From positions 1-44,168 of the IMG/VR virus record IMGVR_UViG_3300036779_000027: DNA of 44,168 bases. One strand, given 5' to 3'. Source of the stretch: a virus (taxonomy: Duplodnaviria; Caudoviricetes). Positions 6,414 to 44,168 of the stretch are shown piece after piece (within the stretch, counting starts at the first letter, position 1; each line of letters starts with the position of its first letter). Both the position numbers and the translations under genes were made by a program. The notes below the pieces were generated by a model. That model did not search any database. It was not told where the DNA came from and saw only the letters and a list, made by a program, of their open reading frames with translations.

Positions 6414-6752
6414 TCACGCACCTGTCGCGCCGGTGGCACCAGTCGGTGGCGTCTTTTCCGCAACCGGCGTATTGGCCACGCCAAGCGCCGCCAGTTCAGC
6501 CTCAACCGCATTGGAACGGTTGACCAGCCACGCCCGCAGATCAGCCATCAATTGCGGATCGTTAGGACCGGGCACAGAAATCATCGCCGCCATCATCATC
6601 GTCGTCACCGGCTCAGTACCCGAAGGTGGAGGTGGTCCGATGGTAAACGTTGTCAACGGACCACCCGCATCGATCATCGCAACCGCATTATTGAGTTGCT
6701 GGTTCTCGGCATAGAGCGCGTTGATCTGGGGAACGTCACTGTATTCGGCCAT
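6414..6752 (-). CDS. Hypothetical protein, paralogue of the 5766-6368 N-terminus
   Basis: Shares QI.ALY.EN..+..A+.+IDAGG.L..FT+..PPP and LVNRS with the neighbouring gene; AAAGGAA RBS. Confidence 0.7.
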
Positions 6753-9700
6753 GCATCTGTTCCTTTAAAGAGGTGACTTCCGCTGCCAATTCCTGAACCG
6801 CCTTCCAGAGGATGGCTGTTAGTTCCCGACTGTCGAGTGACTGATTGCCAGTCTCCTCGTCAATTTGGTGTCCACCAAATTCCTTACCGCCGCCAATGAC
6901 ACTTTCAACATCCTGGGCGATAAAGCCCCAATGCACGATGTCACGCTTCTCTTCGAGTCCATTGTTCCATTTGAACCGTTGCGGGTTGAGTGACATCACA
7001 TACGGCAGACACTCCGGTAGATCGATAATGTCACTCTTCTGCCGCCGGTCACTGGCACCGGGATACGCGTGGGCATAAACATTGGCCCACGCGGTTCCGT
7101 TAAGACCGCAATTCAACGTGTTGTCACTAGTCGGATACAAATTCATATAAGCAATTATGTATGAGGCACCCATTATCAGTTGGGTTACCGCACCACCGAT
7201 AGTCTGAAAATTATGAATGGTGTTACGATAGAAATTGTTACCATTGTCACCGAGATAGATCGCACCGTTGCCCGCGTGATCAAGCAGTGTCACGTAACCG
7301 CTCGCACCGGGAACATTGGAATACATACATTCAATACCGTTCGACCAGAAAGCACCAGCACTGTCGATGGCTGCGATCTGAGTCGCAGCGCCGCCGTTCC
7401 AGAAACGGAATGACGTGCCGCTGGTCGGCAGCACAAAATCTATAACCCCGCTTGCCGCCGTGATCCGCGCTGTGGCAGTACCTAAGTTAATACTGCCTCC
7501 ATTGACTGAGAAGCTAGAGACAACTAAGAGATTGCCGCCAAACGTCGCATCGCCGGTCGTGACATTGAAATACAGCGGGCGCAGTGAATTGAACCCGCCA
7601 AAGGCGTCACCGCTGGCAGTGAACAACAGATAGAGATTAGAGGTGTCGAGCCGGAACATCGCGCCGATGCCGGATGTTGAATTAGCCGGGGCCATGCGGA
7701 TTTGGCCCGCGCCACCCGCTATCGTCGCGAGGACGCTGGGAACGCTGATCGTCGTGTCATCAATAGTAACGCTGGTGATCGCCGCCGCCGTATTGACAGG
7801 TGTCGTCAATAGACGGATTTGCGTGCCTTGCGCAGTGTCCGTCCATGCTTGAGAGGCGACAAACTGGAACGCCGCCCGCGCCCCGGAACTATACCCGGTC
7901 GCGCCGTAACCCATCGCGTTAAACACCCCCAGAACGTCATTCGCTTGCGTCGCGGTCGGTACCGCCGCCGTGCCGTTCGCGCGCCGGAAGGTGAAGAGCG
8001 GCTGGACGCTGCCCCACGCATCGATCAGAAAGCGGGTGCCGCTGCCATCCGCCCCTTGCAGCCACAATGCTGTGCCGCTAAGAACCGTCGCGGTTGGCAC
8101 TGTCGTCGTCGCGTTGAGTATCAACACACTGTTTGACAGCGACATCATCCGCGTGACGCCGCCGTACCAGAAAAAGGTTCCCGCCGTAGCGTTTGGCACC
8201 GAAAACCAGACCGCACCACCTTCTATCCCAATCGCGTAATCGACCGCAGACGCGCTTTCATTGGGATAAAGAATCAGCTTTGTACCGACCGATCGCGTCG
8301 TGAAGGTAGGGGCACCGATGCCGCTGGCAAGCCAACTGATCCAGTTCGACGTGGCGTTAGCGAGCGTGATCTGCGGTGCCGCGCTGGTGAGATTGAGCGC
8401 GCTTGTAATCGAGCCGCTTAGCGAGAGATTGTTAACAACTATCAAATTATCGTAGATACGAACATTACGATTAGGTGACGTCGTACCAGCCCCAACAATG
8501 CTGAGCGAGCTTGTGTCAAAGCCGCGATAGTCGATAGTTCCCGCGTTTATATCGTCACCGCTGGTGATCGCCATCCGCCAGCGAGTTGGAGTGAGGTTGG
8601 CGTAGACTGTAGACTGTGAGTCAGTGGTTTGAATAAGCACTACATCGGCGGCACCCCCTACCGTCTGAAAACGATGGTGCGTGTTCCGGTAGTAGTTGGT
8701 CGGGTCACCGCCGCTGCCGGTGTTTCCGAGAACCAGCGCCGCGTTACCGCCGGGTTCGTACACATACACGTAGCTGGCGCTTGCGTTGGCAAAACCGACA
8801 CCGTTACTGGAATAGATACCACTGGAAGAGATGTTCGCAAAATTCACCCCGTTCTTGTCCTGGAACAGGATGCCATCGTTCCCCGATCCGACATGTAGCG
8901 CGATATAGTTTGGGTCACCGTAGATAAACGGTCCACCCACACCATTGACTGTGCCCGTTCCGCCACTGAGATAGAGGTAATTCCCGCTGAGAGTCAGGCT
9001 TGTCACTGTTACCGCAGCGAGCGTCGTAGCTCCGGTAACATTCAGCGTACCACTAAAAGTACCATTAACCGCAGCCAAATTACCGGTTAGTGTCAATCCG
9101 GTGCTGGCAAAGGTGGCAACCAACGCGGCATTGCCCGCAGTGGTGGGCGCGGTCACATTTATAATCACCCGCGCGCCCTGCGCGGTTCCCGACCACAACT
9201 CAGCGGCTTGTAACTGTATCGAGGCGCGTGTCCCGGTGTATGCCGTGCCGTAACCGCGACCTTCCCATGAACCCAGAATCTGGTTGTTGATGGTCGCTGT
9301 TGGTGACGCGATCGTACCGCCAACCGCTCGCATGTAGATAGTTGGGATACCGGTATTGGACGCATCAAGTAGTACACGCGGGTGAGAATTGTCCGCTTGC
9401 ACCAGCCACAACATCGTCTGAGCGATGGCTGGCGGTGACGCGGCATTCTGACTCAGAGTCACCAAACCGGTGACAGTACCTCCGGTTAACGGCAGGTAAG
9501 GTGTCACTACATCTATCGTGTTCGGCGTGGTACCGGTGTTAAGTGCCAATCCGGGACCAACTTGCCAGTTCGGACCCTGCGGACCTGTAGGTCCGGTTGT
9601 GCCTGTGGCACCTGTTGGTCCCGCTGGTCCGGTCGGTCCCGGAACCGTGCTCGCGGCACCAGTGGCACCCGTTGCACCTGTCGGCCCCGCTGGACCCGTG

Positions 9701-12105
9701 GGACCAGCAACACCTTGCGCGCCCGTTGCACCTGTAGCCCCAGGCGGTCCCGGCACAGTCGAATCTGCACCCGTCGCGCCGGTGGCCCCTGTCGCGCCCG
9801 CTGGGCCTGTAGCGCCCGCAGCACCGGTTAAACCGATCGGACCCTGCGGACCCGTCGCGCCGGTCGCACCGGCGGTTCCTGGAGTGCCCGCCGCGCCTGC
9901 CGGACCCGTAGCACCGGTGGCTCCAGGCGGTCCCGCTGGGCCTGTAGCACCGGTCGGACCCGGCGGTCCTGGCGTGCCGCTAGCGGCGTGCGCGTCGACA
10001 TACTGCTTGGTCGCGGCGTGTAACGCTAAGGTCGGATCGCTAGGTAGCGTCAGCGGGCCGATCAGGGTCGCGCCGGTCGGATCGACCACTAAACAGTTTT
10101 GCGTGACTATGTTGGAACCTTTTGCCGTGGCACCCCACTGCCACATAGTACCCTGCGCGGTGTCGGTCCAATTCTCGGTGGCACGCACAGTCAATTGCGC
10201 GCGACTGGAGGGACTATAGCCCGTAGCACCGTAACCGTAGAAACTAAACTGACCCAGAGGATCATTCAATTGTGTCGCACTGGGTGACGCGTAGGTACCG
10301 CGCGTGGTGCGCATCGTGAGGACTGGCTGAAACCCGGCTCCCGATGAATCGATCTGCAACCGTGCGGGCGTGCCGTCTAGCTGGCGCAGCCACAACATGG
10401 TACCGGTAAGCTGCGGCGGTAAGGGACCAGTATTAAAGTCCAGCATCACCCTGCCGGTGACAGTACCTCCGCTTAATGGCAGGTAAGGTGTCGCGACATC
10501 GAGTGTCGACGGTGTCGTAGTGGTATCGAGTGTCAGCCCTGGTCCGGTCTGGAAACTCACGCCCGCACCCGGCGGTCCCTGCGGCCCAGGCGGTCCAGGG
10601 ATACCCGGTGGTCCCGTGGGTCCGACCAGCGATGTAGCTACGCCCCAGACACCACCCGACTTCGGGCCATAAATAGACTCGGCCACGGTGTCAATATAGA
10701 AGTCACCGTTGACACCAGTGGTGCCAGGAGGTGGTCCGTGACCATTCAGGATCGTGTTACCATTGGCACCCGGTGGACCCTGCGGGCCTGCCGGTCCCGG
10801 TGGTCCCTGTGGTCCCGGCGGTCCAGGACTACCTTCACCGCCGCCGCCACCGATCGGAACTCCGTTGACAAAAAACCCCTGCGAAGCGTCGATCTTGCCA
10901 AACGCCTTGACATCCTTGCTAAACGACGCGAGCGGCGTAGTGTGTAGTAACTGACTCGCTGCCGTAATGGTGATCTGACCTTGCGCCAAAATCTTGATCA
11001 AGTTCTGCGCTGGGCCAGTTCCACCCACTATGTTGTTTACAAGACCGGAAGTCATTTTTAGCAGTGACGAGATATCGGTGCCGAGATTTGCGATGCCGTT
11101 ACCGATATTCGTGAGCGTACTAAGAGCGCCGATCGCCGAGTTGATACCCGAAGTGACACCAGTCATATTGAAGGCGTTACTAGCGGCGTTCCACGCCATC
11201 GAGGCGAGCGCAGACCCTCCCGCTGCGGCACTCAGTCCGGTGTTGATGACATTGGCGACATCATTAAGGCTCTGAACAGCGGAGAAGTTAAGTCCGGTGA
11301 CTTGATGGATGATGTTGTTAATTGGAACCTGAAATGACCCGTTGAGAATAGATTGCCAAGAGCCGATCGCTTGTTCCGCAGCGTTCAGCGCGCCACCAAT
11401 CAGTGAAGCGGGATTCGCGGCTCCCGCCGCCTGAACAATATGACTAACAGAGTCACTGACATTGTGTAGTTGACTCTGGACAACGCTGTTAAGTGCCTTG
11501 CCGAGAACACTGGTCGGGTTGTCGGGCGCGGTGAACGTGAACATCCCGCTGCTTGGACCCGTGGCGCGCCCTTCGGCGTCAAGCCCGTGACCACCCTGGT
11601 TCGGGTTGAAGGTGAGCTTGGTACGCCCGTCGTTGGTCCGCACCTCCCAGGAGGTGGTACTGACGTTGGGTATCTTGTTCGGTTGTGACCGAAAACCAGG
11701 GATCACAAAAGCATCGGACAAGTGGTGCATCCGCGCCGAAGCCTGCGGTCCCACACCGCCGTCCACAAACCAGTTTTCGGTGTCACGGCTGGAATAGATC
11801 GCCAGACCCTCGTCACCCTGCTTGACCGGAATGGTGATCGCCATCCCGCCGCCACCCAACAGTAACAGCGGCTGATCGTCCACTGCCGGGATACTTGTCC
11901 ACTTACCCTGACCGGTCCTGCCGTCGACCACATTAAGCTGGGTGGCTGGTTGTGACTCAACGGTGTTCTTTTCAGGTATGTGCTTATTGATGATGACAGG
12001 CAGCGCGGTCCACATGCGCGCTTGATGCGCGTCCTGTTGCTGGCGAACGGTTTCGTCAGGATCGAAAAACCGCTCTAAGGTGTCAAAGTAACCACCGCTC
12101 ATCAC
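6736..12105 (-). CDS. Baseplate spike (Gp138-like N-terminus) fused to a collagen-containing long fibre and a peptidase S74 chaperone
   Basis: N-terminal MWTALP...[24 protein letters not shown]...[13 protein letters not shown]; GXY collagen tracts; repeated YLPL(S/T)GGTVTG modules; C-terminal [10 protein letters not shown]...[10 protein letters not shown]. Confidence 0.85.
9570..9975 (-). repeat. Collagen-like (Gly-X-Y)n coding repeat
   Basis: [22 protein letters not shown]... in the 1789-aa ORF; shorter tracts at about 10570-10625 and 10765-10830. Confidence 0.9.
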
Positions 12106-18577: not shown

Positions 18578-19180
18578 CTATTCAACTAGATAGACACGAT
18601 ACCGATGCGCGCCCTTCCTATAGTTCTCTAGAGCAAACATCGGCTGGAGATTGGTGTAGTGACACGCCTGCTTGAATTGCACCGGATCGGTGAGATCGAA
18701 AGCGGCGAGCGGTTCCTTGTGATCAACATGCCAGACTGGGCCGTAGTTCTCCCAGGTCATGCCGGACACAAACTGCCCCTCAAGCCACGCTTTCAATTCA
18801 GTTACTGAACAGCCAAGATCGCGAACCGCCGAGCCTCTGCGAATCGCGTGACTCACACGACGACGCAGATTGACACTTAGCTTGAAGACAAAATCCGTCG
18901 CCAGCTTGTCCTTCCGCCAACACCGCAGCCGTGTATTGACCTTGGCGAGGTTGTTCTTGCGATAGGTAACAGAACGCGCAACTTCGGTTTCGGGGTCTTT
19001 GTGATAGTTTTCTCGCCGCCGTTGTCTTGCCGCCGGACGAAGTGTCTCGGCGTTCCTCCGGTAATAGTCACGGGAGAGCGCGTTGAGCTTGTCGCGGTCA
19101 CGCGCGTCGTTCAACGCCTTGACCCGGTCAGGATTGCGGGAACGCCAACGACGTGACGCCTCCGCATTTCCTGTCGCCAT
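18578..19180 (-). CDS. HNH-type endonuclease
   Basis: Basic N-terminus; LGCS..ELK.WLE.QF..GMTWENYG..WHVDH..PL..FDL......ACHYTNLQP...EN..KG. Confidence 0.85.
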   Translation of the reverse strand: MATGNAEASRRWRSRNPDRVKALNDARDRDKLNALSRDYYRRNAETLRPAARQRRRENYHKDPETEVARSVTYRKNNLAKVNTRLRCWRKDKLATDFVFKLSVNLRRRVSHAIRRGSAVRDLGCSVTELKAWLEGQFVSGMTWENYGPVWHVDHKEPLAAFDLTDPVQFKQACHYTNLQPMFALENYRKGAHRYRVYLVE

Positions 19181-25834: not shown

Positions 25835-26326
25835 TTAGGGACCGGTGTCAGGCAGGACACGCGTGGCACTGGGCGGCGGTGACCCCGATGCCATCGAGCT
25901 ACTGATGATCGAACTCACCGCGTAGTTATGCGGTGACGCGGTCAGCACCATCGACTGTTCTGTCACCGGATCGGGGTGCGGATCGGTGAACACCTTACCC
26001 GCGTCGATCGCCGCCTGCCGGTTTGTCGCCCACTCCTCGCTCGCTGCGGCCATTTCGTCCAAAGAAGCCTTTTGTGACGTTGCGAGCGCGTCCAGCTTGT
26101 CCTGGGTCGCCTTTTCGGTGGCAGCTTGTGTCTCCGCATCGGCTTGTGCCTGTGCCACCGCCGGTGCGGTGGCTTTTACCAAATGGGCGACAAACGGGTC
26201 GGCAGCCGCGCTTTCGGGCACATCGTTCAGTCCCGGCTGGAACACCACCACCGAACCATCCGGGTTGTCCGGTGTGCCGCGCAGGTACACATTGACACGC
26301 TGCGTGACAAACACTTGATCAGGCAT
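25835..26326 (-). CDS. Head-associated protein (post-capsid gene)
   Basis: QV(F/Y)V.QRVNVYLR...F.PG.NDVP..A..DPF.A.L and WATNRQAAIDAG shared with the neighbour; GAGGAGG RBS. Confidence 0.7.
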   Translation of the reverse strand: MPDQVFVTQRVNVYLRGTPDNPDGSVVVFQPGLNDVPESAAADPFVAHLVKATAPAVAQAQADAETQAATEKATQDKLDALATSQKASLDEMAAASEEWATNRQAAIDAGKVFTDPHPDPVTEQSMVLTASPHNYAVSSIISSSMASGSPPPSATRVLPDTGP

Positions 26327-26849
26327 TTGATGCCTCCTCGATTGGAACTCTCCAAAACTTCACTTCGGCCCTCCTGCGAGCTTCGGCGGCTTCCGCGTGA
26401 GTCGGGTAGGTGCCCAAGTGAACAATCTTGTTGTCTACATTGATCCTGGCAAACCAGTTCCCAACCCTATTCCGGTAAACGCCCGCGACCTCGCTTGTGT
26501 TATCTCGCCTCCGACTACCGTTCACCATATTCGCGCCGTGTTTCAGAACCCGCAAGTTCCGCCACCTGTTGTCACTCTTGGTCTTATTCTTGTGATCGAT
26601 CTCAAAACCCGGCGGCGGTAACTCTCCTTTCATCCACACCCAGGCTACGACATGCGCGGCATAGTTTGTTCCCTTGTGCGCTAGCATAACATAACCGTGA
26701 CTGTCGGTTCCCATTTCGTCACCGACATCGATGACTCTGCCTCTACCCCACGTTCTGACCTTCGACGTAAACTTGCCTGTCTCTGGGTCGTAGTGCCAAA
26801 GCTCCCACAGCTTCGGCTCTAGATACTTCGCCGTGTATCTGATCGCCAT
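26319..26849 (-). CDS. HNH endonuclease with AP2-like C-terminal domain
   Basis: YDPETGKF...GY......Y.AH..AW.W..G..P....IDH.N....DNR..NLR.....N..N.....NTS...GV......W.A.I......HLG.Y....A..AR. Start ATG 26849 with GGGAGG. Confidence 0.9.
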   Translation of the reverse strand: MAIRYTAKYLEPKLWELWHYDPETGKFTSKVRTWGRGRVIDVGDEMGTDSHGYVMLAHKGTNYAAHVVAWVWMKGELPPPGFEIDHKNKTKSDNRWRNLRVLKHGANMVNGSRRRDNTSEVAGVYRNRVGNWFARINVDNKIVHLGTYPTHAEAAEARRRAEVKFWRVPIEEASNA

Positions 26850-26876
26850 GCCTACCTCCCACAAAGGGAGGCAAGC
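26850..26876 (-). promoter_or_regulatory. Hairpin sequestering the Shine-Dalgarno of the HNH gene
   Basis: Minus strand GCTTGCCTCCC-TTTGT-GGGAGGTAGGC-ATG: 11-bp stem (with G-U pairs), 5-nt loop, SD in the 3' arm. Confidence 0.65.
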
Positions 26877-28556: not shown

Positions 28557-29540
28557 TTACCGCGAAGCGCCGTTGGTGTTCCGGTTGTTCCAGAACTCCT
28601 TGGCACTCGCGTTCATCTCGGCGATCGACGGCGGGCCGCGCCGTGGCAGCGTGACACCGTCACGCGTCTTCGCGGCGGTACGCGTGGTGCCCTGCCGGTT
28701 CATCAACCGAACCTGGGCGGCGGCGGCGTTGAACGCCATTTTGACACTGTCACACGTCAGTGTCTTGGTGTCGATCGTGCCGATGGAATCGTGGATGATC
28801 CCCTTGGTGTTCTCGTCACTCAGCGCGTGATCGAGAACCCGGCGGCGGAACGCACACAGACGGCGCGCCGTGCTCGCGAGTGTCAACCGCGCATCAAATG
28901 TGGGAACTTTGACACCGGGCTGGAGTATCTCAGCCGCCGCCATTGTGCCTTGCCACAGGTCTTCGGCATCCGCCGAATCGTGGGTCCGTGCATAATTGTC
29001 ACGGAACTTGCGGCGGTCACCGGTACCGCCCTGCTTCAGGTCTTCCAGACCGGGGAGATCGGTTTCGCCGACCATATCCTCGCCCAGCCGTTCCGGTGTC
29101 GGAATGTCACTCTCGTCATGGGTTCTGCCGCGCCGCATGCGGAACCGGCGGCGATCCTTGGTTTCGGGGTCTTCGAGTTCAACGTCTTCGCCGTCTTCGC
29201 CTCCCTCGCTGTTACCGCCGCCACCGTTACCGCCGCCGCCTTCGAGTTGCTCAACGCGCTGTAACAGTTCGGCCACGGCGGCGGCAAGCTGTTGAACATC
29301 CGGCTCGCCGCCACCACCAACATCGATCGGGGGATCATCGTCACCTGCCATACCGCCGCCTCCTTCGCCGCCTTTGCCGCCCATGTGCAAATGGATATGG
29401 GTGTCACCGTCATCGGGACTGCCGCCGCCGGTCGGTTGACCGCTGCTAGGGTCAATAAAGTCTTTGGTGACTTCGCGGGCTTCCTCTTCGGTGTCCGCGT
29501 CACGCACCCGGCGCACCATACGGTCCAGCCAGTTAGCCAT
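28557..29540 (-). CDS. Capsid scaffolding protein
   Basis: Acidic/Gly-rich with many T(H/G/R)D motifs, AEILQPG+K+PTFD, LC.FRR..L, C-terminal SIAEMN....FW; lies between protease and cement genes. Confidence 0.75.
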   Translation of the reverse strand: MANWLDRMVRRVRDADTEEEAREVTKDFIDPSSGQPTGGGSPDDGDTHIHLHMGGKGGEGGGGMAGDDDPPIDVGGGGEPDVQQLAAAVAELLQRVEQLEGGGGNGGGGNSEGGEDGEDVELEDPETKDRRRFRMRRGRTHDESDIPTPERLGEDMVGETDLPGLEDLKQGGTGDRRKFRDNYARTHDSADAEDLWQGTMAAAEILQPGVKVPTFDARLTLASTARRLCAFRRRVLDHALSDENTKGIIHDSIGTIDTKTLTCDSVKMAFNAAAAQVRLMNRQGTTRTAAKTRDGVTLPRRGPPSIAEMNASAKEFWNNRNTNGASR

Positions 29541-30619: not shown

Positions 30620-33600
30620 CGTCAGCCTCCGCTTGTCCCTTCGAGAAGCCGCCCGCGATCCTGACAATCTTCTTCTGGGTATCCTCCAAGCTGGCGTTGC
30701 CGCTATGGTAGTCGCGCCACGCCGTATAGATAGCCTGGGCAGCTTCCTTGGTCAGGTGACGGTCAAACAAGCGGCGCTTGGCTTCCCAGGTGATCGACTG
30801 TAGCACGCGCGGCTTGATTTCCAACTCCTTAGCCAATTCGCGGTTTGCTTCGGCAAAGAGCGGATAGGTGCCGCTCATCCCGGTCAAAGAGTTACCAGTT
30901 GGTGCTACATAATGCAACTGTCGGGCAATCGCCGCCGTCGCAGGCTTTGATCCCAGCGAGTGCATCACCGCAGTATGTGACTGACCCATTGGTGACAACA
31001 ACGCCGCACCGACCGCGTGCGTGTCCATAGTCACATCATCGTTGTCACTATCGGGATCAAGGATGTTGTTATAAAAGGAACGCACCTTGTGCTGGTTACC
31101 CATCGCCGGACTGATTTTGTCACGGTCACCACCTGACTCCAGCGAGATGATCGCGTTGGCGATCGAACCGGTGGTGTGCCACGCGTTTGTCGCGGGCTTA
31201 CCCTTGTCGGTCAAATAGGTACCGATCACTCGCCCATCGGGACTGAGTGCCTTAAAGCTGCGCGCATTGTGTGCCTGATCGTAGGTTCTGATCCACATCG
31301 CCTTCTTCACCGGGGTGTCCATTTCCGCCAGGGTCTTACCCTTGATCAGCTTATAAAGTGCCTCTTTCTGCGCGGCGTTCTTCGCGGCCTGCGGTGTCGT
31401 TGCCAGTTTCTTGGGATCGGGTAACCAAATCTTCTCACCGGTCTTGGTCATCTTGTCATCCCAAGGTTCCTGCTGCTTAGTGAAATAAGTGTCTAACACC
31501 ACCTTGGCTTGATGGACGTTCATGTCCCACAGATTTTGCGGTGACAGCGCGGCGTAGGCACCAACAACCGACTGCAACGGTAACTTGTACTTGTCTGCGT
31601 CCTCCTGTGCCAGCCGGTGCGCGCCCTCGTACCACTTGTGACCTTCGGTGCGTATCTTCTCTGGTGCAGCCTCGTACAGGAACCGCAGGTTATTTTTCAT
31701 GTGGTTGATGATAGCGCGTGCCTGTTGGTCCGGTGTACCTTTGAGTTCACCGGGCTTAAAGTTTGGGTACTGTTCCGCATTCTTGAACAATCCGACATCG
31801 TGCTCAAAGTTCTCCGGGTCGAGCTTCATCGCCGCGAGATCAACGCGACGGTATTCGTCGCCTTCCACCGCGTTGACATGGGTCGGGCGACGCGTCGAGA
31901 TTGTTGCGGGGTGACTGTTCTTCGCGGCACCCTTTAGTAACTTGTTCTGTTTGCCAAGTGTCGGTTCCTTTGTGTGTTCCTGTTTGCTTATGCTCTTTGT
32001 TTCTGTCTGCGCATTTGGCTCACTACCAGCACCGCCAGCTTCTTCTTTAGACACAAACTGACCGCCGGTGCCACCAGCCGCGCCCTTGGGCGCGGTCGGG
32101 TGCTCCTCTTTCTTGAACACCGCTCTATCACCCAGGTTGAGCACCTCCATCAGGCTGTGCGCTAGCCTTGTCACCGCTGGGTGCGGCACACTCGGTTTAT
32201 TTGATTCTGTCTCAGCGGCTGATCGCGACGGTGACGCCGGTCGCTGTAACGGATCGGGAATAGTGGTCACTTTCTCCTGGCTCTGCCACTGGATGCGTTC
32301 GCGGCGGTGATCCCATTTCTCGTTCTTGCGTGACTTCTGGGTCCGGTATAACTGGTTCACTTTCCGGTACAGGTCCATCCACGGCTTCTTGACCTCCGAC
32401 AGTGACTCATCAGTCTCATCGAGCCGCGCGATCTCGGCGAGTGTCTCATGGATCGCATTGCGCAGCGGCGCTTTACCGTCGAGATACTCCTTCCACCACT
32501 CACGACTGTATGCGGTGACACCATCGGTAGATTGCAAGTCATACTGTTTGTTACTCATCAACTCGTTCATCACCGAATACACCGGATAATCACTCGCATA
32601 TTGTTCCAGAACGGAACCGTCCGGCTTGATGACACTGTCACTCCCGTTGCGCTCATCGTGCATGATCTCATCGAGTTCCTCGTTGAACTCATCGAGCGCG
32701 TGTTGGAACTTATAGTGCATCACCTCATGCGACAGGACACCACGCACCTGTGATATCGGCAGACGCTTTGAGTAGAGCGTGATCATGCCCGTCTGTGAGT
32801 CATGGGTACCAGCGGCGTAGTGCTTCTCACCGTTCAGCATGAACTCGTAATCAGTGTCAACGATCTTAAACAGGTTTGGCGGTATGTGTGCCTTTTTCAG
32901 GATCACCTGTGAAGCGTCCTGTATCTCCTGGTGAATTTGTGCCTGTACCCGCGCCACCGACGCCTTGTGTTCCGCATGCGCGTCTTCCACGGTGTCGAGC
33001 GTGTTCTTCAGTTCATCCCAACCGCGACCCTCGTTGTAGGAACGCTTGTCACCGTCACCGTGATCGATCAGGTACCGCCAACTGGCATTGGCGAGTGTAC
33101 CTTTGTCGTAATCCTTATAGATGAATACTTCGTCGCCATGACGGTTCCTAAACGCCACGGCGGTGTCACTCTCAACAAACGGCTTGAACCCCATCTCTGT
33201 CGAGAATAACTTGTCACCAAACTGCTTGGCAAACTTGGAGTCAAACACCTCACCCTTTTCGTATCTCCGTAGGTGACCGATCAGACTTAGGTTACCGTAA
33301 CCCGAATAACGCCGCTCATTGTAGGAGTCCGTGTGCTGCCAATACCGCCCTTCCTGGCCAGGAAACTGCGAACTGCCGTATTCAATCGTGTTCCCGTATT
33401 TACCCTTATAGACATGACGCCCCATATCGGTATCAAGGTCTTGACTGTGATCAAACCTGTAGCCCTGGTTTTCCAGTTCAGTGGTTAGTGACTTCGGCAA
33501 GCCTTTAGGCGGCTCGGTACTTTCTGCCTTCGGCTCCGGTGACGGCTCCGGTAACGGTTCCAGCACAGGCGGTACTTCTTGCTGTCGCGCGCTACCCGCA

Positions 33601-34753: not shown

Positions 34754-34927
34754 TCAGTCACCGGCTGTCTCGTCATCGGCTTCGACGTTGGTAACCCATA
34801 CCACTTCACGATTGTCATCAAAGATCACTTTTGCGAGTGACCAATCCTCCTTGGTCGCGGGCATCATCTCCTTGGTGAGATACGCCACCATTGCCATGCG
34901 ACCGTCAATCGTCTGTTTCTCGATCAT
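34754..34927 (-). CDS. Small hypothetical protein
   Basis: Manual translation MIEKQTIDGRMAMVAYLTKEMMPATKEDWSLAKVIFDDNREVVWVTNVEADDETAGD; ATGA-coupled to the HNH stop. Confidence 0.6.
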   Translation of the reverse strand: MIEKQTIDGRMAMVAYLTKEMMPATKEDWSLAKVIFDDNREVVWVTNVEADDETAGD

Positions 34928-35358
34928 CGCCACGCACCTTCTGGCCGTTTAGCACCCGGTGGTGCCGTCAGCGCGTACTCCAAGTTCCAACCGTAGATAA
35001 GTCTCTTAGTAAGCGCAGAATGGGAAACACCGTAACGTCGAGCCAAATCAGCCAAAGGAACACCATCCACAAAAACAGTGTTACGCCGGTTGTTGATATT
35101 CTCGCGTGGCAGTGACCACTTAACATTACCAGGAGCGTAACCAACATCGTTCATGATCCGGTCAAGCTGGTGTCGCGGTGACGGTCGTAGACCTACGTGA
35201 GCAAAGAACGCCGCAAAGTTCTTTCGCCACCCCGGATAAACAGTGATACCGCGACCACCGTAATTATGGTACCCTTTATGTCGCGTATCATAACACCTGT
35301 TTAGCATCGCCCGCCAAGACCGGTACTCAGGAGTTCCGTGCCTACCGTGTTTGATCAT
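34924..35358 (-). CDS. HNH-type endonuclease
   Basis: EY.SW..M..RC.......Y.NYGGRGI.V...W...F..F....G.RP.....LDRI.N...Y.PGN..W.....N..N.R plus a C-terminal HTH. Start ATG 35358 (ATGA with the MuF stop). Confidence 0.85.
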   Translation of the reverse strand: MIKHGRHGTPEYRSWRAMLNRCYDTRHKGYHNYGGRGITVYPGWRKNFAAFFAHVGLRPSPRHQLDRIMNDVGYAPGNVKWSLPRENINNRRNTVFVDGVPLADLARRYGVSHSALTKRLIYGWNLEYALTAPPGAKRPEGAWR

Positions 35359-36302
35359 CTCCCTATTTCCTCTGGCGGTGGAATATGAGGACTCTGCCAG
35401 CACCTACAATTGTATATCGTGCCGGGCAAGCCGGTTTCCCCATTATCTCCTATTACCGGCGGATCGTCATAAGCAAATATCCTGCCTTCGAGCTTCCTAT
35501 GCAAAGGTCTTACATCCGCGTCGAGGGCCGTTTTCCAGGTGAAGTGTGTAGCTCCTATATACTGTGCTCGTGATTGTGTCACTGCACTACTGGTCCGCGC
35601 AGTTTCAGTTCGGGCTATAAGCGAGGCACGGTTATAAACACTCTGCGTCGTTGCGTTGATCCCCTCGATCAGTAACTTTCGGGCAATATCCTCGCGGGAC
35701 TCCAACACCTCCTCACGCAGGTAACCGTATCTGCGGCCCGCAACCCAGTACGCCTGTGACAGGTCTTGTACCCGCTGCGCTGCTTCGAGTGGAATCGAAG
35801 TGATCAGTTCCACTTGCTCGTCAACAATACGCCGCATCTCATCACCGGTCAGAGTACCTCCCCACAAAAGTTCCTTATCAAGCTCTCGGTTTATCAGCCG
35901 CGCGTGCCTCACCCACGCAGTGTAATCACGGCGTGACACTTCAGCGACCATCAACTGCCCGGTAGCCCTAGCCCAAGGTCTGAGTATCGACGCGTAGTCT
36001 CGGAGGTACCGGTTGATCGCTTCCACACCAGCCGGATCACCCGGCGGGTACGCGCGTATGATATCGGATACGTGTCTGGCGATCCGTCGAAGTTTTGCCG
36101 CGTAACCGTGGTATACATTGAGTATCTTGGCGAAGTGTTCCGCTTCACGTTGTCGTTGTCTGCGTGACTGGGCGTCTAAAGTCAGTGTGCTCGCGGCAAA
36201 ACGTTTGGTCACCTCACGCTGGTGTTCGATGCGTGACACTAAGCTGGTGTTACCCAGTGAGTCAGCCAGTGTCGCCGCAAACGATGCCGGGTTCTTCATC
36301 AT
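35355..36302 (-). CDS. MuF / SPP1 gp7-family minor head protein
   Basis: LITSIP.EAA.RV, RA.LIARTET.R, W.TA.D.DVR..H..L.G..F....PP.....G.PG..YNCRC. Confidence 0.9.
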   Translation of the reverse strand: MMKNPASFAATLADSLGNTSLVSRIEHQREVTKRFAASTLTLDAQSRRQRQREAEHFAKILNVYHGYAAKLRRIARHVSDIIRAYPPGDPAGVEAINRYLRDYASILRPWARATGQLMVAEVSRRDYTAWVRHARLINRELDKELLWGGTLTGDEMRRIVDEQVELITSIPLEAAQRVQDLSQAYWVAGRRYGYLREEVLESREDIARKLLIEGINATTQSVYNRASLIARTETARTSSAVTQSRAQYIGATHFTWKTALDADVRPLHRKLEGRIFAYDDPPVIGDNGETGLPGTIYNCRCWQSPHIPPPEEIGR

Positions 36303-39457: not shown

Positions 39458-39877
39458 TCAATGCAGGATCAGCTTCTTGCGAGAGTCCTTGCGGTACGCC
39501 TCGATTGGCGGCTTGTAGTTGGGCCAGCACTGACGGACGGCGTTCACCACTTCCATCGCACTAGGATGAATACCTTTTGCTGCGAACTGACGCAACCAAA
39601 TCAGTAGCTGCGCGTGAATTTCTTTGTGCTCTAAATCCTTGCGACAGCAGATGATAAACCGGGCACTCGGCAGGACGAAGACACCCAATGGCGGGAACTC
39701 GTAACCAGTCTCTGCTTTGAACTTGTCGGCGTGGTGCTTGATCACATAATCCACGCGATCGATCAGTGACTGATCGAAGGTGGCAAAGCTGGAGACAAAA
39801 CGGCTCAGTGCCTGACTGAGTTCCCGTAACCCGTTTTGTACCCGTTCATCATGGTTGTCGAGCATCGGCATCGACAC
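39458..39877 (-). CDS. Hypothetical protein directly downstream of the repeat array
   Basis: AAAGGAAG RBS immediately after the last repeat unit; globular-looking 139 aa with no recognised motif. Confidence 0.7.
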   Translation of the reverse strand: MSMPMLDNHDERVQNGLRELSQALSRFVSSFATFDQSLIDRVDYVIKHHADKFKAETGYEFPPLGVFVLPSARFIICCRKDLEHKEIHAQLLIWLRQFAAKGIHPSAMEVVNAVRQCWPNYKPPIEAYRKDSRKKLILH

Positions 39878-39887
39878 TTCCTTTAGA

Positions 39888-40134
39888 TGATTCTGTCAAC
39901 AATCGTGGGTCACTCATCTATCATGTTTCTGGTCATTGTCCCTGGTTCACTTCCACATCATGCGTCTGTCTCGCACCTAGGGTTCGCTTCCCTTGCTTGT
40001 GTCTATCTCTCGAATAGGCTCGCTCGTTCACTTTGTGTCTGTCACGATGCGTGACTCGTTCGCTTTGTTTGTGTCTATCGCACTTGGTGACTCGCTTTCC
40101 CGGCCTGTGTCTATTGATGTCCTCCGGCTCGCAG
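39888..40134 (-). repeat. Array block 1 (7 units)
   Basis: TGTGTCT-like box at 39888, 39924, 39961, 39998, 40034, 40070, 40106. Confidence 0.9.
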
Positions 40135-40246
40135 ATTCTGCTTCTCTCCGTGGCCTTGGCTGCGCGTGCGCGTGCGGGTACCGGCGTTGCCGTGCCAGAC
40201 GCCATAGTGCCGACCGCATCCCGTAACAAAACGCGCACATGTTGTT

Positions 40247-40419
40247 TGTATCCAATCTCCGTGGGTGGCTCACTCGCCTTTGTTGTGTCTGTCAATTGGC
40301 ACGGGTCACTCATCTTACCTGTGTCTGTCAATTGGCACGGGTCACTCATCTTACCTGTGTCTGTCAATCTTACGGGTTCACCCTGCTTCAATGTGTCTGT
40401 CTCTTGCAATGGTTCACTC
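40247..40419 (-). repeat. Array block 2 (5 units, two identical)
   Basis: Box at 40247, 40284, 40320, 40356, 40392; units 40284-40319 and 40320-40355 are identical. Confidence 0.92.
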
Positions 40420-40444
40420 AGGACTGTCTATCCGACCAAGCGGT

Positions 40445-40630
40445 TTAGATTGGTGACCTCCACTTCTCAGCCGCTGCCTTTGGGTCGTCTTGGTAACCCT
40501 GCGGCTTGAAGTTCTGCAAACAGCGCATCGCCTTAAAGTGGATTGACGCAGTGACCGGATCGGCCATGTCGGACGCTTCGGTCAGTTGCACCACGCGCGC
40601 CAGTTCCTCAACGGTGAGATCGATGTTCAT
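40445..40630 (-). CDS. Small hypothetical protein embedded in the array
   Basis: AAAGGAA RBS directly after a repeat box; MNIDLTVEELARVVQL... Confidence 0.6.
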   Translation of the reverse strand: MNIDLTVEELARVVQLTEASDMADPVTASIHFKAMRCLQNFKPQGYQDDPKAAAEKWRSPI

Positions 40631-40645
40631 GTCACTTCATTCCTT

Positions 40646-40890
40646 TGTTTCTGTCACATGACACGGCTCGCTTGGCCCTCTGTATCTGTCTATAACCGTG
40701 ACTCACTCTCCGTGCTTGTTTCTGACTTGCTGACATGGTTCACTCATACGATCTGATTCTGTTTTCCCCACGGGTTCATTCGTCTGGGCTGTGTCTATCC
40801 GAATATTTGAGTCACTCTGATATCTTGTGTCTGTCGCTTCTAGTGGTTCACTCTCCACAAGTGTTTCAAGTCCGCAAATAGGGTTCAATC
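40646..40890 (-). repeat. Array block 3 (7 units)
   Basis: Box at 40646, 40681, 40717, 40754, 40790, 40826, 40862. Confidence 0.9.
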
Positions 40891-41160
40891 CAGCACCAGC
40901 ACGCGGCGTTTGTGCTTCGCCGGTGGTGGCACATAATCCATACCATCGATCTCGGCGAGGATACGCTGCGCGTGTTCCTCCGGGATGTGACGCACCGACC
41001 AGCCGTCGACACCGGCTTGCTTGGTTGACAGTTGCCAGCCCTTGTTACCGTGGAACAAGGTAAAGCCTTCAAGCATCGGGTACCTCGTCATCAGCAAGTA
41101 CATTCTAAATTCGTCACCGGGGTGATGCGTGTGCTCACCCAACACAAACACCGCTGGCAC
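40885..41160 (-). CDS. Small hypothetical protein embedded in the array
   Basis: ...GFTLFHGNKGWQLS...GWSV.HI...; its TGA stop lies inside a repeat box; start uncertain. Confidence 0.6.
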   Translation of the reverse strand: MPAVFVLGEHTHHPGDEFRMYLLMTRYPMLEGFTLFHGNKGWQLSTKQAGVDGWSVRHIPEEHAQRILAEIDGMDYVPPPAKHKRRVLVLD

Positions 41161-41161
41161 T

Positions 41162-41207
41162 TAGTCACTCATTCCGTTTGGTTTCTGTCACCACCAGTGG
41201 TTCGCTT
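41162..41207 (-). repeat. Isolated single array unit
   Basis: tagtcactc-attccgtt-tggtttctgtc-accaccagt-ggttcgctt. Confidence 0.7.
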
Positions 41208-41372
41208 TTGCCAATGCCGTCGCGGCGGGCGTAGCGGGCGTGCGGGCGGCTCACAGATAAAACACCGGCACTTGGCCATTTGATCCGGCTTCGTCAGCCG
41301 ATCCGCGAACGCGACAAACGCCCCAGCGGTGATCATACCAAACAACCACCCGATTGCCAGCCAGCCGAACAA
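41169..41372 (-). CDS. Small membrane protein embedded in the array
   Basis: N-terminal TM segment FGWLAIGWLFGMITAGAFVAF and a CxCxxC motif; its stop lies in a repeat box. Confidence 0.5.
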   Translation of the reverse strand: MFGWLAIGWLFGMITAGAFVAFADRLTKPDQMAKCRCFICEPPARPLRPPRRHWQKRTTGGDRNQTE

Positions 41373-41830
41373 TTACGGCGCGGGGATCGGCTCCGGGTCA
41401 CCGACCGGGCTGATGGTACCCGATACCGCTTCGCCCGCCACCACGGTGACATCAAATATGGTGATCACGTTACGCACGCCCGCGCCAAGATCGGCATCAG
41501 CGGTTGCCGAGATTTGCGCGGTGCCTAGTGTCGCGCCCGCGACTACCACGGCGTTCTGTGTATCGACTGGATCGGCAGACACGCTCACGACATCGATTGC
41601 ACTGCTATCCCACGTCACCGCGCCGTCGACAACAGCGGGGTGACCGTTTGCATCGACATAGTCGACGCGGACGTGAACTTGCATACCGCCTGGAAGTGTG
41701 TACGCCATGTCGGTTCCTTTCGCTTGAAAATGATCACAGGTTGCAGTGACTATCACCCGGCCCTCGCGCGGCGGCGGCTTTAGGATCAGTTCGATCGCGC
41801 CACCAAACGTGACCGAGATTGAGTTACTCA
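41373..41830 (-). CDS. Ig-like (Big_2-type) domain protein embedded in the array
   Basis: YVDANG.PA.VDG.VTW.SS...V..V......A.V.AG..LGTAQI.ATADADLG. Start ATG 41830, or 41708 (AAAGGAA RBS). Confidence 0.7.
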
Positions 41831-42142
41831 TGTCCACCAAAGCCGTTCGTACACCGAGATATACACGCTCGGTTGAAGTGTCTCTCTCGCAGGGTGTGAC
41901 TCGCCCATTTCTTTTGTGTCTGTCTCTTGATATGGCTCACTCGCCGTAGTTGTGTCTATCAGAGTCGATGGTTTATTACGCTCCCACGGTTCACCAAACG
42001 GGACACAGAGATAGGCCCGGTCGGCAAGCACAGTGACCGTCGTATCACCAGTCACCGGATGCGTCTGCCACTTGGTGGCCAGCGACTTGCCGCCGTCCTG
42101 GTAACCGTGGGTCGGTTGATCTTCTGGGTAAGGGTTCTTCAC
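41828..42142 (-). CDS. Possible small protein whose 3' half reads through array block 4
   Basis: GTG start lies inside a repeat box; the unique part is 41979-42135. Confidence 0.35.
   Translation of the reverse strand: MKNPYPEDQPTHGYQDGGKSLATKWQTHPVTGDTTVTVLADRAYLCVPFGEPWERNKPSTLIDTTTASEPYQETDTKEMGESHPARETLQPSVYISVYERLWWT
41877..41978 (-). repeat. Array block 4 (3 units)
   Basis: Box at 41877, 41915, 41951. Confidence 0.85.
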
Positions 42143-42517
42143 TCTCTACTACCTGTGTCTATCTGGTTATGTGGTTCACTCTCGAAGAGTGTTTCCGTCT
42201 AGTATAATGGTTCACTCCCGGATGTTGTATCTTATCGATGCATTTGGTTCACTTCGACATCTTGTGTCTAATTCCAGAGGAGTGGTTCGTTCAACGCCCT
42301 TGTGTCTAATCCGGAGATAGGGACTCGTTCCGGTCTTTCGCTTCAGTCTTCTACTATGACTCGCTTTAGTCACTCCTACTACGTGTGTCTGTCTTTTCTA
42401 ATGGCTCCTGTTCGGTGTTTCTATCCTAATCCTTTGGCTCGCTCTGAGCTATTGTGTCACTCGATTGTAATGGCTCGCTCTGGAAGAATGATTCCCGTCA
42501 TCGTAGATGACTGCGCC
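42136..42517 (-). repeat. Array block 5 (about 10 units), starting 7 nt after the portal stop
   Basis: Box at 42154, 42190, 42226, 42263, 42301, 42339, 42384, 42416, 42453, 42489. Confidence 0.88.
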
Positions 42518-42524
42518 AATAGGA

Positions 42525-44168
42525 TCACATTGCCTTGCGCGCGTCCACGAAATTCTGGAAATAGTTCCTAAAGTCGCTCAGCGTATACTCTTTTCCGCGC
42601 ATGAAGCGGTCGGGACCGGAACCGTCAGCGTAGAACCCATTGAAAACCTTCAAGACGTCACTACCCGTACCCCAGCCGAGAAACACCTTGGGCTGGTGGT
42701 ACTTCTTGGTACCGGGTTCACAGGTATCGATAACAAACACCCGATTGCTCGCTTCGTGCGGACCCAGGAACACATCGAGGCAGTCACCGTCATTGGCGAT
42801 CGTGCCAGGGAAGTAACCGTAGGCTGCGAGCATCTCCGCGCCGCCGGAACTCCCGACATGACGATGGTCACCTTGCTCACACTCGACACACACCTTGAAC
42901 CCGGCATAGTTAGCGATCCGCTTTGGCGGTCCATCCTGGTCACTGGTGTAGACATGAAAGATCGGCTTCTTGGTGCGGTGCGGTGACTCGAACGGTAACT
43001 CAGGCTCGTCATCGTCACTCGCCTTCTCGCCACCGGCACCCAATATAGTTCGCATGCCTCCCGGCAAGAACGAGGAGCGGTGCTGCTTCACCCTGCCACT
43101 GCCACCAGGAAGAAATGACCGCTCCTCGTCCTGCCCGCCGGGTTTTGGTAGCTGCCCAGGCTGACCCTCTCCAGGGAGGAAGGAGGGTGCTGGCGGCTCG
43201 CCACCCGGCCCGCTGGCACCAGGAGTCCCCACCCCAGGCGGTGACAGCGGTGGCGCGTTTTCGGCTTGGTCAATCATCTCGTCGGTGATGTTTGTCCACA
43301 CACCCGTGCGGTGACTCTGTTGCTTGAGTTCCTTAAATATCAGTGCCTGATCGGTGACAACACCGGCCTCAAAAGCCTGTAACACCTGTTGGGTGACACC
43401 GGAACTAATTTGTACCTTTTCAATCTCCTGCAACTGCCACAAGGGATTAAAGAACCAGCTAAAGCCGTTGGGTATCTTTATGCCGAGTGACTTTGCCACC
43501 ACCTCGATCAGGTTATCAACTGGTCTGCGGAACTTACGTTCCTGTTGGGATTTTATCATATCATAATAATTTCGGATGTCTGACTCACCGGTGGAGTTCA
43601 GACCAACCGGTGACTGACCAAAGAGTCTCACTAGCGGGATACCCAGAGCACCGGAGATTTGCTGACCCATCTGGATCAGCACCGCATCGAGGCCGGTAAA
43701 CGAATAAACGTCACTTTCCAAGCGGTCGTTGGCATCGAGGATTGAGATACCCTCGTTTTGTTGGTAGAACCGCAGGAAGTCGATTGCTTGTAACTGTGCC
43801 GCCAGCATGTCACCGCCGGTACCGACTGTCTCCTTCCACTTCTCGATAAACAGCTTGCGGACACTCGCACGGTTCACCAACTGCGCGGTGCTCGCAGTGG
43901 TCATATCGAACGACATCAACCGGTCCCACAAGGGTTCCAGCACCGACATGTCCCACAGGTTTTCGCTGAGCCGCTGGTAGTATGGCAGCTTGACACCATC
44001 AAACCGGATAAACCGCGTGTGATGGATTCGGGTACTCGGCGGCAATGGCGTGTCACCAACCGTGGTATAAAACTTTGGCTTGCCGTAATCGAGTGACCGT
44101 TGATCGGTGACTAGATCGGTGAGTGACGGGTCGACCAGCCAGCGGTCGAGCGGTAACAAACCGCAGAA
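42525..44168 (-). CDS. DUF1073-family portal protein with C-terminal inorganic-pyrophosphatase-like domain (5' truncated)
   Basis: LDRW.V, IHHTRFIRFDG..LP, SGALGIPLVRLFGQSP.GLNSTGESD..NYYD, F.PLWQ; C-terminal YGY..GT...DGD.LDVFLGP....VFVID.......KVFLG. The frame stays open to the window edge. Confidence 0.9.
   Translation of the reverse strand, partial: FCGLLPLDRWLVDPSLTDLVTDQRSLDYGKPKFYTTVGDTPLPPSTRIHHTRFIRFDGVKLPYYQRLSENLWDMSVLEPLWDRLMSFDMTTASTAQLVNRASVRKLFIEKWKETVGTGGDMLAAQLQAIDFLRFYQQNEGISILDANDRLESDVYSFTGLDAVLIQMGQQISGALGIPLVRLFGQSPVGLNSTGESDIRNYYDMIKSQQERKFRRPVDNLIEVVAKSLGIKIPNGFSWFFNPLWQLQEIEKVQISSGVTQQVLQAFEAGVVTDQALIFKELKQQSHRTGVWTNITDEMIDQAENAPPLSPPGVGTPGASGPGGEPPAPSFLPGEGQPGQLPKPGGQDEERSFLPGGSGRVKQHRSSFLPGGMRTILGAGGEKASDDDEPELPFESPHRTKKPIFHVYTSDQDGPPKRIANYAGFKVCVECEQGDHRHVGSSGGAEMLAAYGYFPGTIANDGDCLDVFLGPHEASNRVFVIDTCEPGTKKYHQPKVFLGWGTGSDVLKVFNGFYADGSGPDRFMRGKEYTLSDFRNYFQNFVDARKAM

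Follow-up and report, generated by a model that had tools for sequence, protein, structure and literature searches.

Dispersed among the head genes of a soil phage are 33 repeat units that, judging from their sequence, form a dual-repeat TIGR array, with an edge repeat of the SpTIGR type and a divergent, A-rich loop repeat. We propose that this split array probably yields 36-nt guides, cut in the middle of the edge repeat, which would direct a remotely encoded, nuclease-free TasA to repress non-self DNA.

A split array in the head operon

The window (the whole stretch of DNA that we analyzed, 44,168 nucleotides) is the entire record G000, a linear virus contig of a soil phage with an estimated completeness of 40%. 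It holds the genes from the portal through the tail, on the minus strand. By reading every box, we found 33 units on the minus strand (10+3+1+7+5+7), in five blocks plus one single unit that stretch from the portal stop (42525) to a 137-139-aa gene (39877). An earlier note on this DNA had counted about 33 units by hand, with the same blocks and strand, and the exact recount gives the same number. A degenerate extra unit near 40433 comes on top of the 33. The features are:

42525..44168, minus strand: portal gene, its 5' part off the contig (Pfam PF06381, E=7e-63; C-terminal InPase-like PF18823, E=1e-16), directly upstream of the array
42140..42512, minus strand: array block 1, 10 units; begins with a 5'-truncated edge and ends with a 3'-truncated edge that overlaps the next start codon
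41828..42142, minus strand: 104-aa ORF with 74% identity in L002; L008 and L032 have its N-terminal part
41866..41973, minus strand: array block 2, 3 units, within the 104-aa ORF
41373..41840, minus strand: Ig-like ORF between blocks (weak Big_2 match, E=0.002, below the cut-off); homologue in L032
41166..41207, minus strand: single unit (edge, spacer A, loop, spacer B, half edge)
40885..41076, minus strand: 63-aa ORF between blocks, conserved in G001, G002, L002, L008, L035 and L043 with 57-70% identity
40633..40890, minus strand: array block 3, 7 units, including unit 40817, which has an A/B-swapped counterpart in G002
40445..40630, minus strand: 61-aa conserved ORF between blocks; homologues 39-75% identical
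40234..40419, minus strand: array block 4, 5 units, with an exact loop-to-loop duplication that creates a chimeric guide, and with unit 40419, which has swapped and shifted counterparts
39875..40134, minus strand: array block 5, 7 units; final spacer B just 5' of the following start codon
39458..39877, minus strand: 137-139-aa gene that closes the array region, 76-84% identical in relatives
32189..32224, minus strand: intragenic half-edge unit in a 1353-aa gene
31990..32025, minus strand: another unit in that gene, whose 3' half-edge is degenerate; it scores 28.4, as compared to 0.6 for the runner-up outside the array

The 3' half of the 104-aa ORF is an in-frame read-through of block 2. The Ig-like ORF is missing from this place in L002, and the 137-139-aa gene has no match in Pfam or PHROG. 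Relatives of the window keep the genes between the blocks, and comparison with L002 shows units gained, lost and reordered. Despite the altered order, the two have identical spacer pairs in common. Ribosome binding may be the reason why some of the conserved terminal spacers are retained. The homologues of the 1353-aa gene in G001 and G002 have units in the same region, with different spacers.

We also noticed several features of the surrounding genes. The InPase-like domain lies at the end of the portal protein (42525-42930), after a proline-rich linker. A 1789-aa ORF (6736-12105) fuses a baseplate-spike N-terminus, a sheath-like segment (DUF3383), collagen repeats and a tail-fibre chaperone domain. 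The structural operon holds four HNH or endonuclease VII-like genes (2226-2909, 18578-19180, 26319-26864 and 34924-35403). A near-identical phage (G004, loci L001/L007; 94.7% over 509 bp) extends upstream of the window and has 32 further units around its terminase genes. We searched for a viral contig that overlaps the window's left end and found none.

Edge and loop repeats

The edge repeat is GAGYGARCCA and the loop repeat is GAYAGAHACA. This assignment follows from the unit at 41207, which stands alone, and from the half edges that bound blocks: half edge repeats stand at the start or end of blocks 1 and 2 and of the single unit. In sequence logos, the loop is A-rich. The earlier note had both boxes right, but its register, with spacers of 8 or 9 nt, needed correction: the two repeats measure 10 nt each, and the two spacers mostly 8 nt (for spacer A, in 19/27 units). 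Information at spacer positions is at most 0.10 bits. The unit period is mostly 36 nt (range 35-38), with frequent length changes of 1-2 nt, and several edges in the window have drifted from the consensus. An exact 36-nt duplication at 40284-40368 appears again in run X1, the likely source sample of the window, as a contig of double depth. In unit 40383 (40347-40383), the spacers are near copies of each other, so its inferred site is palindromic; this unit is identical in L002.

A weight-matrix scan for both boxes found 29 units at 39.8-42.6 kb, as compared to a mean of 0.05 (maximum 1) in 200 dinucleotide shuffles; since the matrix was trained on the window and related arrays, this control is a test of clustering and not of independence. 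The same matrix found no units on the plus strand of the window. The two alternating boxes and the period of mostly 36 nt that the earlier note described are seen on the minus strand. An Rfam search of the array gave no match.

Assignment to TIGR

In the published description, a TIGR unit consists of an edge, spacer A, a loop and spacer B (PMC12045711). Dual-repeat arrays alternate two repeats of 8-12 nt with spacers of about 8-9 nt in a 36-nt unit, are bounded by half edges and have an A-rich loop, and the window's array agrees with this. The closest known system is SpTIGR-TasH from Salicola phage CGphi29 (PMC12045711), which, like the window, has a 36-nt unit, 10-nt repeats and 8-nt spacers (the SpTasH guide in its Table S3 has 8-nt spacers). 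The SpTIGR edge is identical in type to ours, including the CCA and TCA variants (PMC12045711): our edge consensus corresponds to the ends of the SpTIGR guides in Table S3, and the edge of the SpTasH guide is a common variant of the window's edge. When we ran the edge matrix on the CGphi29 genome, it found the validated array (10 edges at 36-nt spacing beside TasH) and nothing elsewhere. The CGphi29 locus, too, is found in a phage just downstream of the terminase. There are three differences. The window's loop differs from the SpTIGR loop at positions 3, 5 and 8; the effector in the window's relatives lacks the HNH domain of SpTasH; and in CGphi29 a single array of 10 edges follows tas directly, whereas here most units are remote and are split by small genes.

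In their Nop-only effector, the window's relatives resemble the dual-repeat TIGR-TasA systems (FpTasA, and the repressor MbTasA; 10.64898/2026.09.09.750476). A difference from these systems is an insertion of about 80 aa in the G001-type TasA. Arrays at least 37 kb from tas and units inside genes other than tas also set our system apart, as does the number of units: G001 has 77, versus "5 to 15 most often" in the survey of Faure et al. (PMC12045711) and about 16 for each dual-repeat array according to the preprint (10.64898/2026.09.09.750476). TaTIGR-TasR (PDB 9MTY) resembles the window's array in the core of the edge and in the two base pairs between the RNA ends, but it has 9-nt repeats and spacers, a UG box D and an active RuvC nuclease.

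Two other kinds of arrayed guides do not fit. CRISPR arrays are also found in mobile elements but have a single 25-36-nt repeat and spacers about as long, versus two repeat types and 8-nt spacers here, so the earlier note was correct to set CRISPR aside. VIPR arrays have GGY/NN motifs in the published account available to us. The earlier note had suggested either a divergent TIGR-type array or a new related class; given the SpTIGR edge, and the same motif next to Nop-only Tas genes (see below), the TIGR reading is now firmer than that. It had also named a 12-amino-acid protein repeat as an alternative, which can be dismissed for most blocks: blocks 2 and 4 do have one open frame, but in blocks 1, 3 and 5 every minus-strand frame has 2-9 stops, length changes of 1-2 nt are common, and the spacer positions carry almost no information.

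Predicted RNA ends and the asymmetric loop

In the structure of TasR, two base pairs join both ends of the processed RNA (PDB 9MTY). We counted pairs across the predicted RNA ends in 361 de-duplicated neighboring units, related members of which are not fully independent: positions 3 and 8, the box C/D pair, were Watson-Crick in 336/361 and positions 4 and 7 in 303/361. Within one repeat of the same units, the counts were 274 (3-8) and 247 (4-7), and the reverse control gave 266 and 244. In the window alone, the 3-8 pair across the ends was present in 17/19 (13.8 expected) and the 4-7 pair in 16/19 (8.7 expected). Because end-to-end covariation is stronger than covariation within the intact repeat, we infer that the RNA comes from the minus strand and is cut between edge positions 5 and 6. 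The end covariation could reflect selection on pairing, or else the insertion of whole mature units.

Faure et al. report that box C/D motifs covary in nearly all cases across edge and loop (PMC12045711). In the window, loop positions 3 and 8 are C.A in 14/27 units and T-A in 8/27, and they pair in 9/27, so this loop does not mirror the edge. Among 80 TasA loci (the best 80 of 499 from a search by protein alone), 57 have a symmetric G/C loop, 8 have Y/A(T), 4 are mixed and 11 could not be scored. The asymmetric loop is a variant trait, not an absolute criterion against dual-repeat TIGR-Tas. We considered a single origin of the Y/A loop and rejected it: these loops are scattered on a quick tree, where 7 changes are needed and at least 3 are forced.

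Five predicted RNAs had no stable structure when folded (z -1.5 to 0.9). A Rho-independent terminator after the array is described as typical of dual-repeat TIGR-Tas; on the minus strand, we found none directly after any block, and the region has 6 terminator-like sites versus 4.7 in shuffles. A promoter scan of the region gave hits at chance level.

A nuclease-free TasA encoded far from the array in a relative

A scan with the motif identified 22 viral and 30 metagenome stretches, and none in prokaryotic genomes. The matches come in two settings: a terminase-portal-head region syntenic to the window's, and arrays beside a protein of 270-380 aa. In six contig regions, the array adjoins one protein family. 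A profile of these six proteins matches TaTasR (9MTY, E=8e-18) and SpTasH (E=1.2e-11), and we found no nuclease domain in them. The top nine Foldseek matches of a low-confidence model (pLDDT 59) are TasH or TasR, and the protein from L017 is listed in Table S1 of Faure et al. (PMC12045711). Conversely, in 74 of the 80 loci found by protein alone, an edge array lies on the tas strand, and in none on the other strand. The insertion in the G001-type TasA (L005:11341-12489) is partly beta-stranded in a low-confidence model and is common to L017, L038 and L047.

A Tas profile search of the window found no tas gene, but another 7 kb or so would be needed for this 40%-complete contig to reach the place where synteny puts tas. 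The relative G001 (112,650 bp) has terminal repeats, is complete and is syntenic with the window, at a mean identity of about 75-77% in aligned stretches. Its one tasA lies at 18.8-19.9 kb, accompanied by 11 units; a further 66 units with the same logos are found at 56.7-83.5 kb. Thus, 66/77 units are at least 37 kb from its only TasA. A contig of 113,846 bp likewise has both a head-region array and a tas-side array.

Run X1 contains contigs at a depth of 7.2-10.4, about 84% identical across the G001 tasA gene and its neighbors; the window's own contigs are at 9.8-10.8 in that run. Runs X2 and X3 have short low-depth pieces of both the window and the tasA region. This is co-occurrence at similar depth, not physical linkage.

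The loss of tasA, with arrays that serve as decoys or use TasA supplied by a co-infecting relative, would account for a contig without tas, and a guide in G001 and G002 resembles the tasA of relatives (see below), so conflict over TasA is plausible. Nevertheless, we think that loss is very unlikely, given where the contig ends, the depth-matched tasA contigs in X1, and the presence of tasA in both long relatives.

SpTasH processes its own precursors through Y289 and H296 (PMC13421893). In 13 aligned TasA proteins, the counterpart of H296 is His in 13/13 and the counterpart of Y289 is Tyr in 10/13 and Phe in 3/13. The X1 homologue apparently has Phe at the catalytic Tyr position.

Remote arrays in other phages

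We scanned ten long tas-bearing records with the edge pattern. Three have arrays far from a single tas, six (including G018, which is 63% complete) have arrays near tas only, and one has none. With a stricter parser, the units more than 5 kb from tas number 46/56 in G001, 20/21 in G015, 45/80 in G016, 32/38 in G020 and 0/9 in G018. One array block of G015 lies just before the terminase gene, and the remote arrays of G016 are amid recombination, replication and methylase genes. In G016 (L373-L374), a single phage has 80 units, whose loop repeats vary greatly; its 45 remote units are 14-28 kb from tas.

The survey of Faure et al. covered 5 kb on either side of tas (PMC12045711). The TIGRFinder preprint describes a scan "surrounding tas loci" and, in the portion available, reports intragenic units within tas only (10.64898/2026.09.09.750476). 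We found no published account of remote TIGR arrays in the literature searched, whose coverage largely leaves out subscription papers.

Convergent guides

Under the published rule, a target site is spacer A followed by the reverse complement of spacer B (PMC12045711). Applying this rule to 1152 guides, we found four pairs in which guides from different phages name one site with A and B swapped, at up to 1 mismatch, as compared to a mean of 0.025 in 40 permutations. With up to 2 mismatches, there are 8 pairs (five sites) versus 0.43 in 40 permutations.

Two of the window's units, 40817 and 40419, take part in convergent sites. The swapped counterpart of unit 40817 in G002 is a mirror guide. Unit 40419 overlaps two guides of other phages: one in G002, with swapped spacers and a one-base shift (15/15), and one in L058, with a one-base shift (14/15). 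In these overlaps, the junction base fits the published geometry only, with one discriminating base per pair. Because the edge and the loop differ, duplication within an array would hardly produce a swap. It is simpler to suppose that the swapped guides were captured independently from one duplex.

Searches for targets

The earlier note had proposed a search for bipartite spacer matches (spacer A with reverse-complemented spacer B). Such searches gave no significant excess of matches over the permuted or control background. Across the DNA of the loci studied, 36/1347 guides had a site at up to 1 mismatch, versus 27 +/- 5.5 when permuted, and none matched exactly. For the guides of the window and G004, 4/65 had a site at up to 2 mismatches, versus 6-8 in controls. 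Cross-targeting among loci gave 5/380 versus 1-3 in controls, and at least one of these is an array artefact.

We also searched with the convergent sites. For site 1, the 87 matching viral stretches belong to 66 clusters that are unrelated and mostly of low GC. It also matched 120 prokaryotic stretches, with no taxon cluster among the 80 matches listed, and a search of three whole records for a second match found none above controls. Site 2 matched 12 stretches. One of them lies in a probable capsid gene, which we rejected as a target: in 78 loci of that family, 1/395 guides matched at up to 1 mismatch, versus 3-9 in controls. A codon-phase test of variable guide positions was not significant (23/61 versus 15-19 in other geometries; 8 clusters versus 5.0 expected).

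Two guides had individual matches. A guide in the head operon of G001 and G005, with a homologue in G002 (L009:11634, L012:6358), has a conserved 8+9-nt sequence whose site is a conserved coding stretch of tasA, at up to 1 mismatch in six loci (L038, L047, L116, L119, L084 and L086). G001's own tasA has four mismatches to this site. This is possibly an anti-TIGR guide, but controls gave up to 2 one-mismatch guides, so the match is not significant. For the guide at L008:8680, G001 and G002 have a site with 1 mismatch in a gene of the head scaffold region, and the window has one with 2 mismatches near 28757.

Proposed function

We propose the following steps. The array blocks are likely transcribed with the head genes, on late transcripts. 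The precursor would be cut halfway along every edge repeat to give 36-nt guides, with TasA either cutting or protecting them. A cognate, nuclease-free TasA, presumably encoded elsewhere in the same genome, would be loaded with these guides. The complex would then bind 16-bp sites in non-self DNA and block transcription, by analogy with another TasA that represses transcription in reporter assays (10.64898/2026.09.09.750476). Its targets would lie in rival phages or other mobile elements and not in the host's genes. Among the genes of G001 are those for an integrase and an AlpA-like protein, and the integrase fits with competition among temperate phages. Several observations speak against the proposal: the contig has no tas gene and is not linked to the X1 tasA contigs, target matches are at background level, the loop does not mirror the edge, several edges have drifted, the X1 homologue apparently has Phe for the catalytic Tyr, and some terminal spacers may be kept for ribosome binding.

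We weighed this proposal against several others. First, the units could act in cis: TasA would bind or cut them in the late polycistronic mRNA and tune the expression of head genes, and guides would be a by-product. The blocks do lie between and inside conserved late genes and overlap start codons, a large head gene has intragenic units with different spacers in three lineages, and self-processing by SpTasH, with the His retained in all aligned TasA proteins, is also compatible. But a cis role does not explain dozens of distinct spacer pairs or why swapped and shifted guides should specify a common site, and G016's remote arrays have recombination, replication and methylase genes around them. 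We consider this reading unlikely, but less so than the loss of tasA or the next two.

Second, TasA and its guides could regulate the phage's own genes at the DNA level (the lysis-lysogeny decision or the timing of late genes). The integrase and AlpA-like protein of G001, and the published repression by TasA in reporter assays, would be in line with this. However, 0/53 G001 guides have a self site at up to 1 mismatch, G001's 2-mismatch self sites are not above controls, and the other genomes are alike (0/196 guides at up to 1 mismatch in G001, G015, G016, G020 and G018), so we find self-regulation very unlikely.

Third, the array could be a decaying relic that spread by slippage and no longer makes useful guides. 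Degenerate boxes, variable periods and the chimeric duplication are what decay would produce. The compensatory changes across the RNA ends in the window (the 4-7 pair) and the spacer pairs shared with L002 though their order differs argue against this, and we give it very little weight.

A broader scenario may be suggested, although we hold it only tentatively and think it somewhat doubtful. Contiguous double-stranded sites of 16 bp might be captured as guides again and again, each time independently, in both orientations and with a shifting register, and whole 36-nt units might be inserted at edge or half-edge sites anywhere that is transcribed. The phage would hold a genome-wide library of 50-80 units, served by one TasA in trans and aimed at rival phages, and in one case at the rivals' tasA.

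Implications

Compared to known TIGR systems, what is new here is a remote and dispersed array, an asymmetric loop, and natural convergent guides that bear on spacer acquisition. Both TIGR papers name the origin of spacers and their targets as questions (PMC12045711; 10.64898/2026.09.09.750476). Surveys anchored on tas would miss most of the guides of G001, G015, G016 and G020, where the majority of units are more than 5 kb away, and more guides per genome give greater power for finding targets. A loop without the box C/D pair gives more freedom in the design of engineered tigRNAs. Natural pairs of swapped or shifted guides can serve to filter for real target sites, and they bear directly on how guides are acquired.
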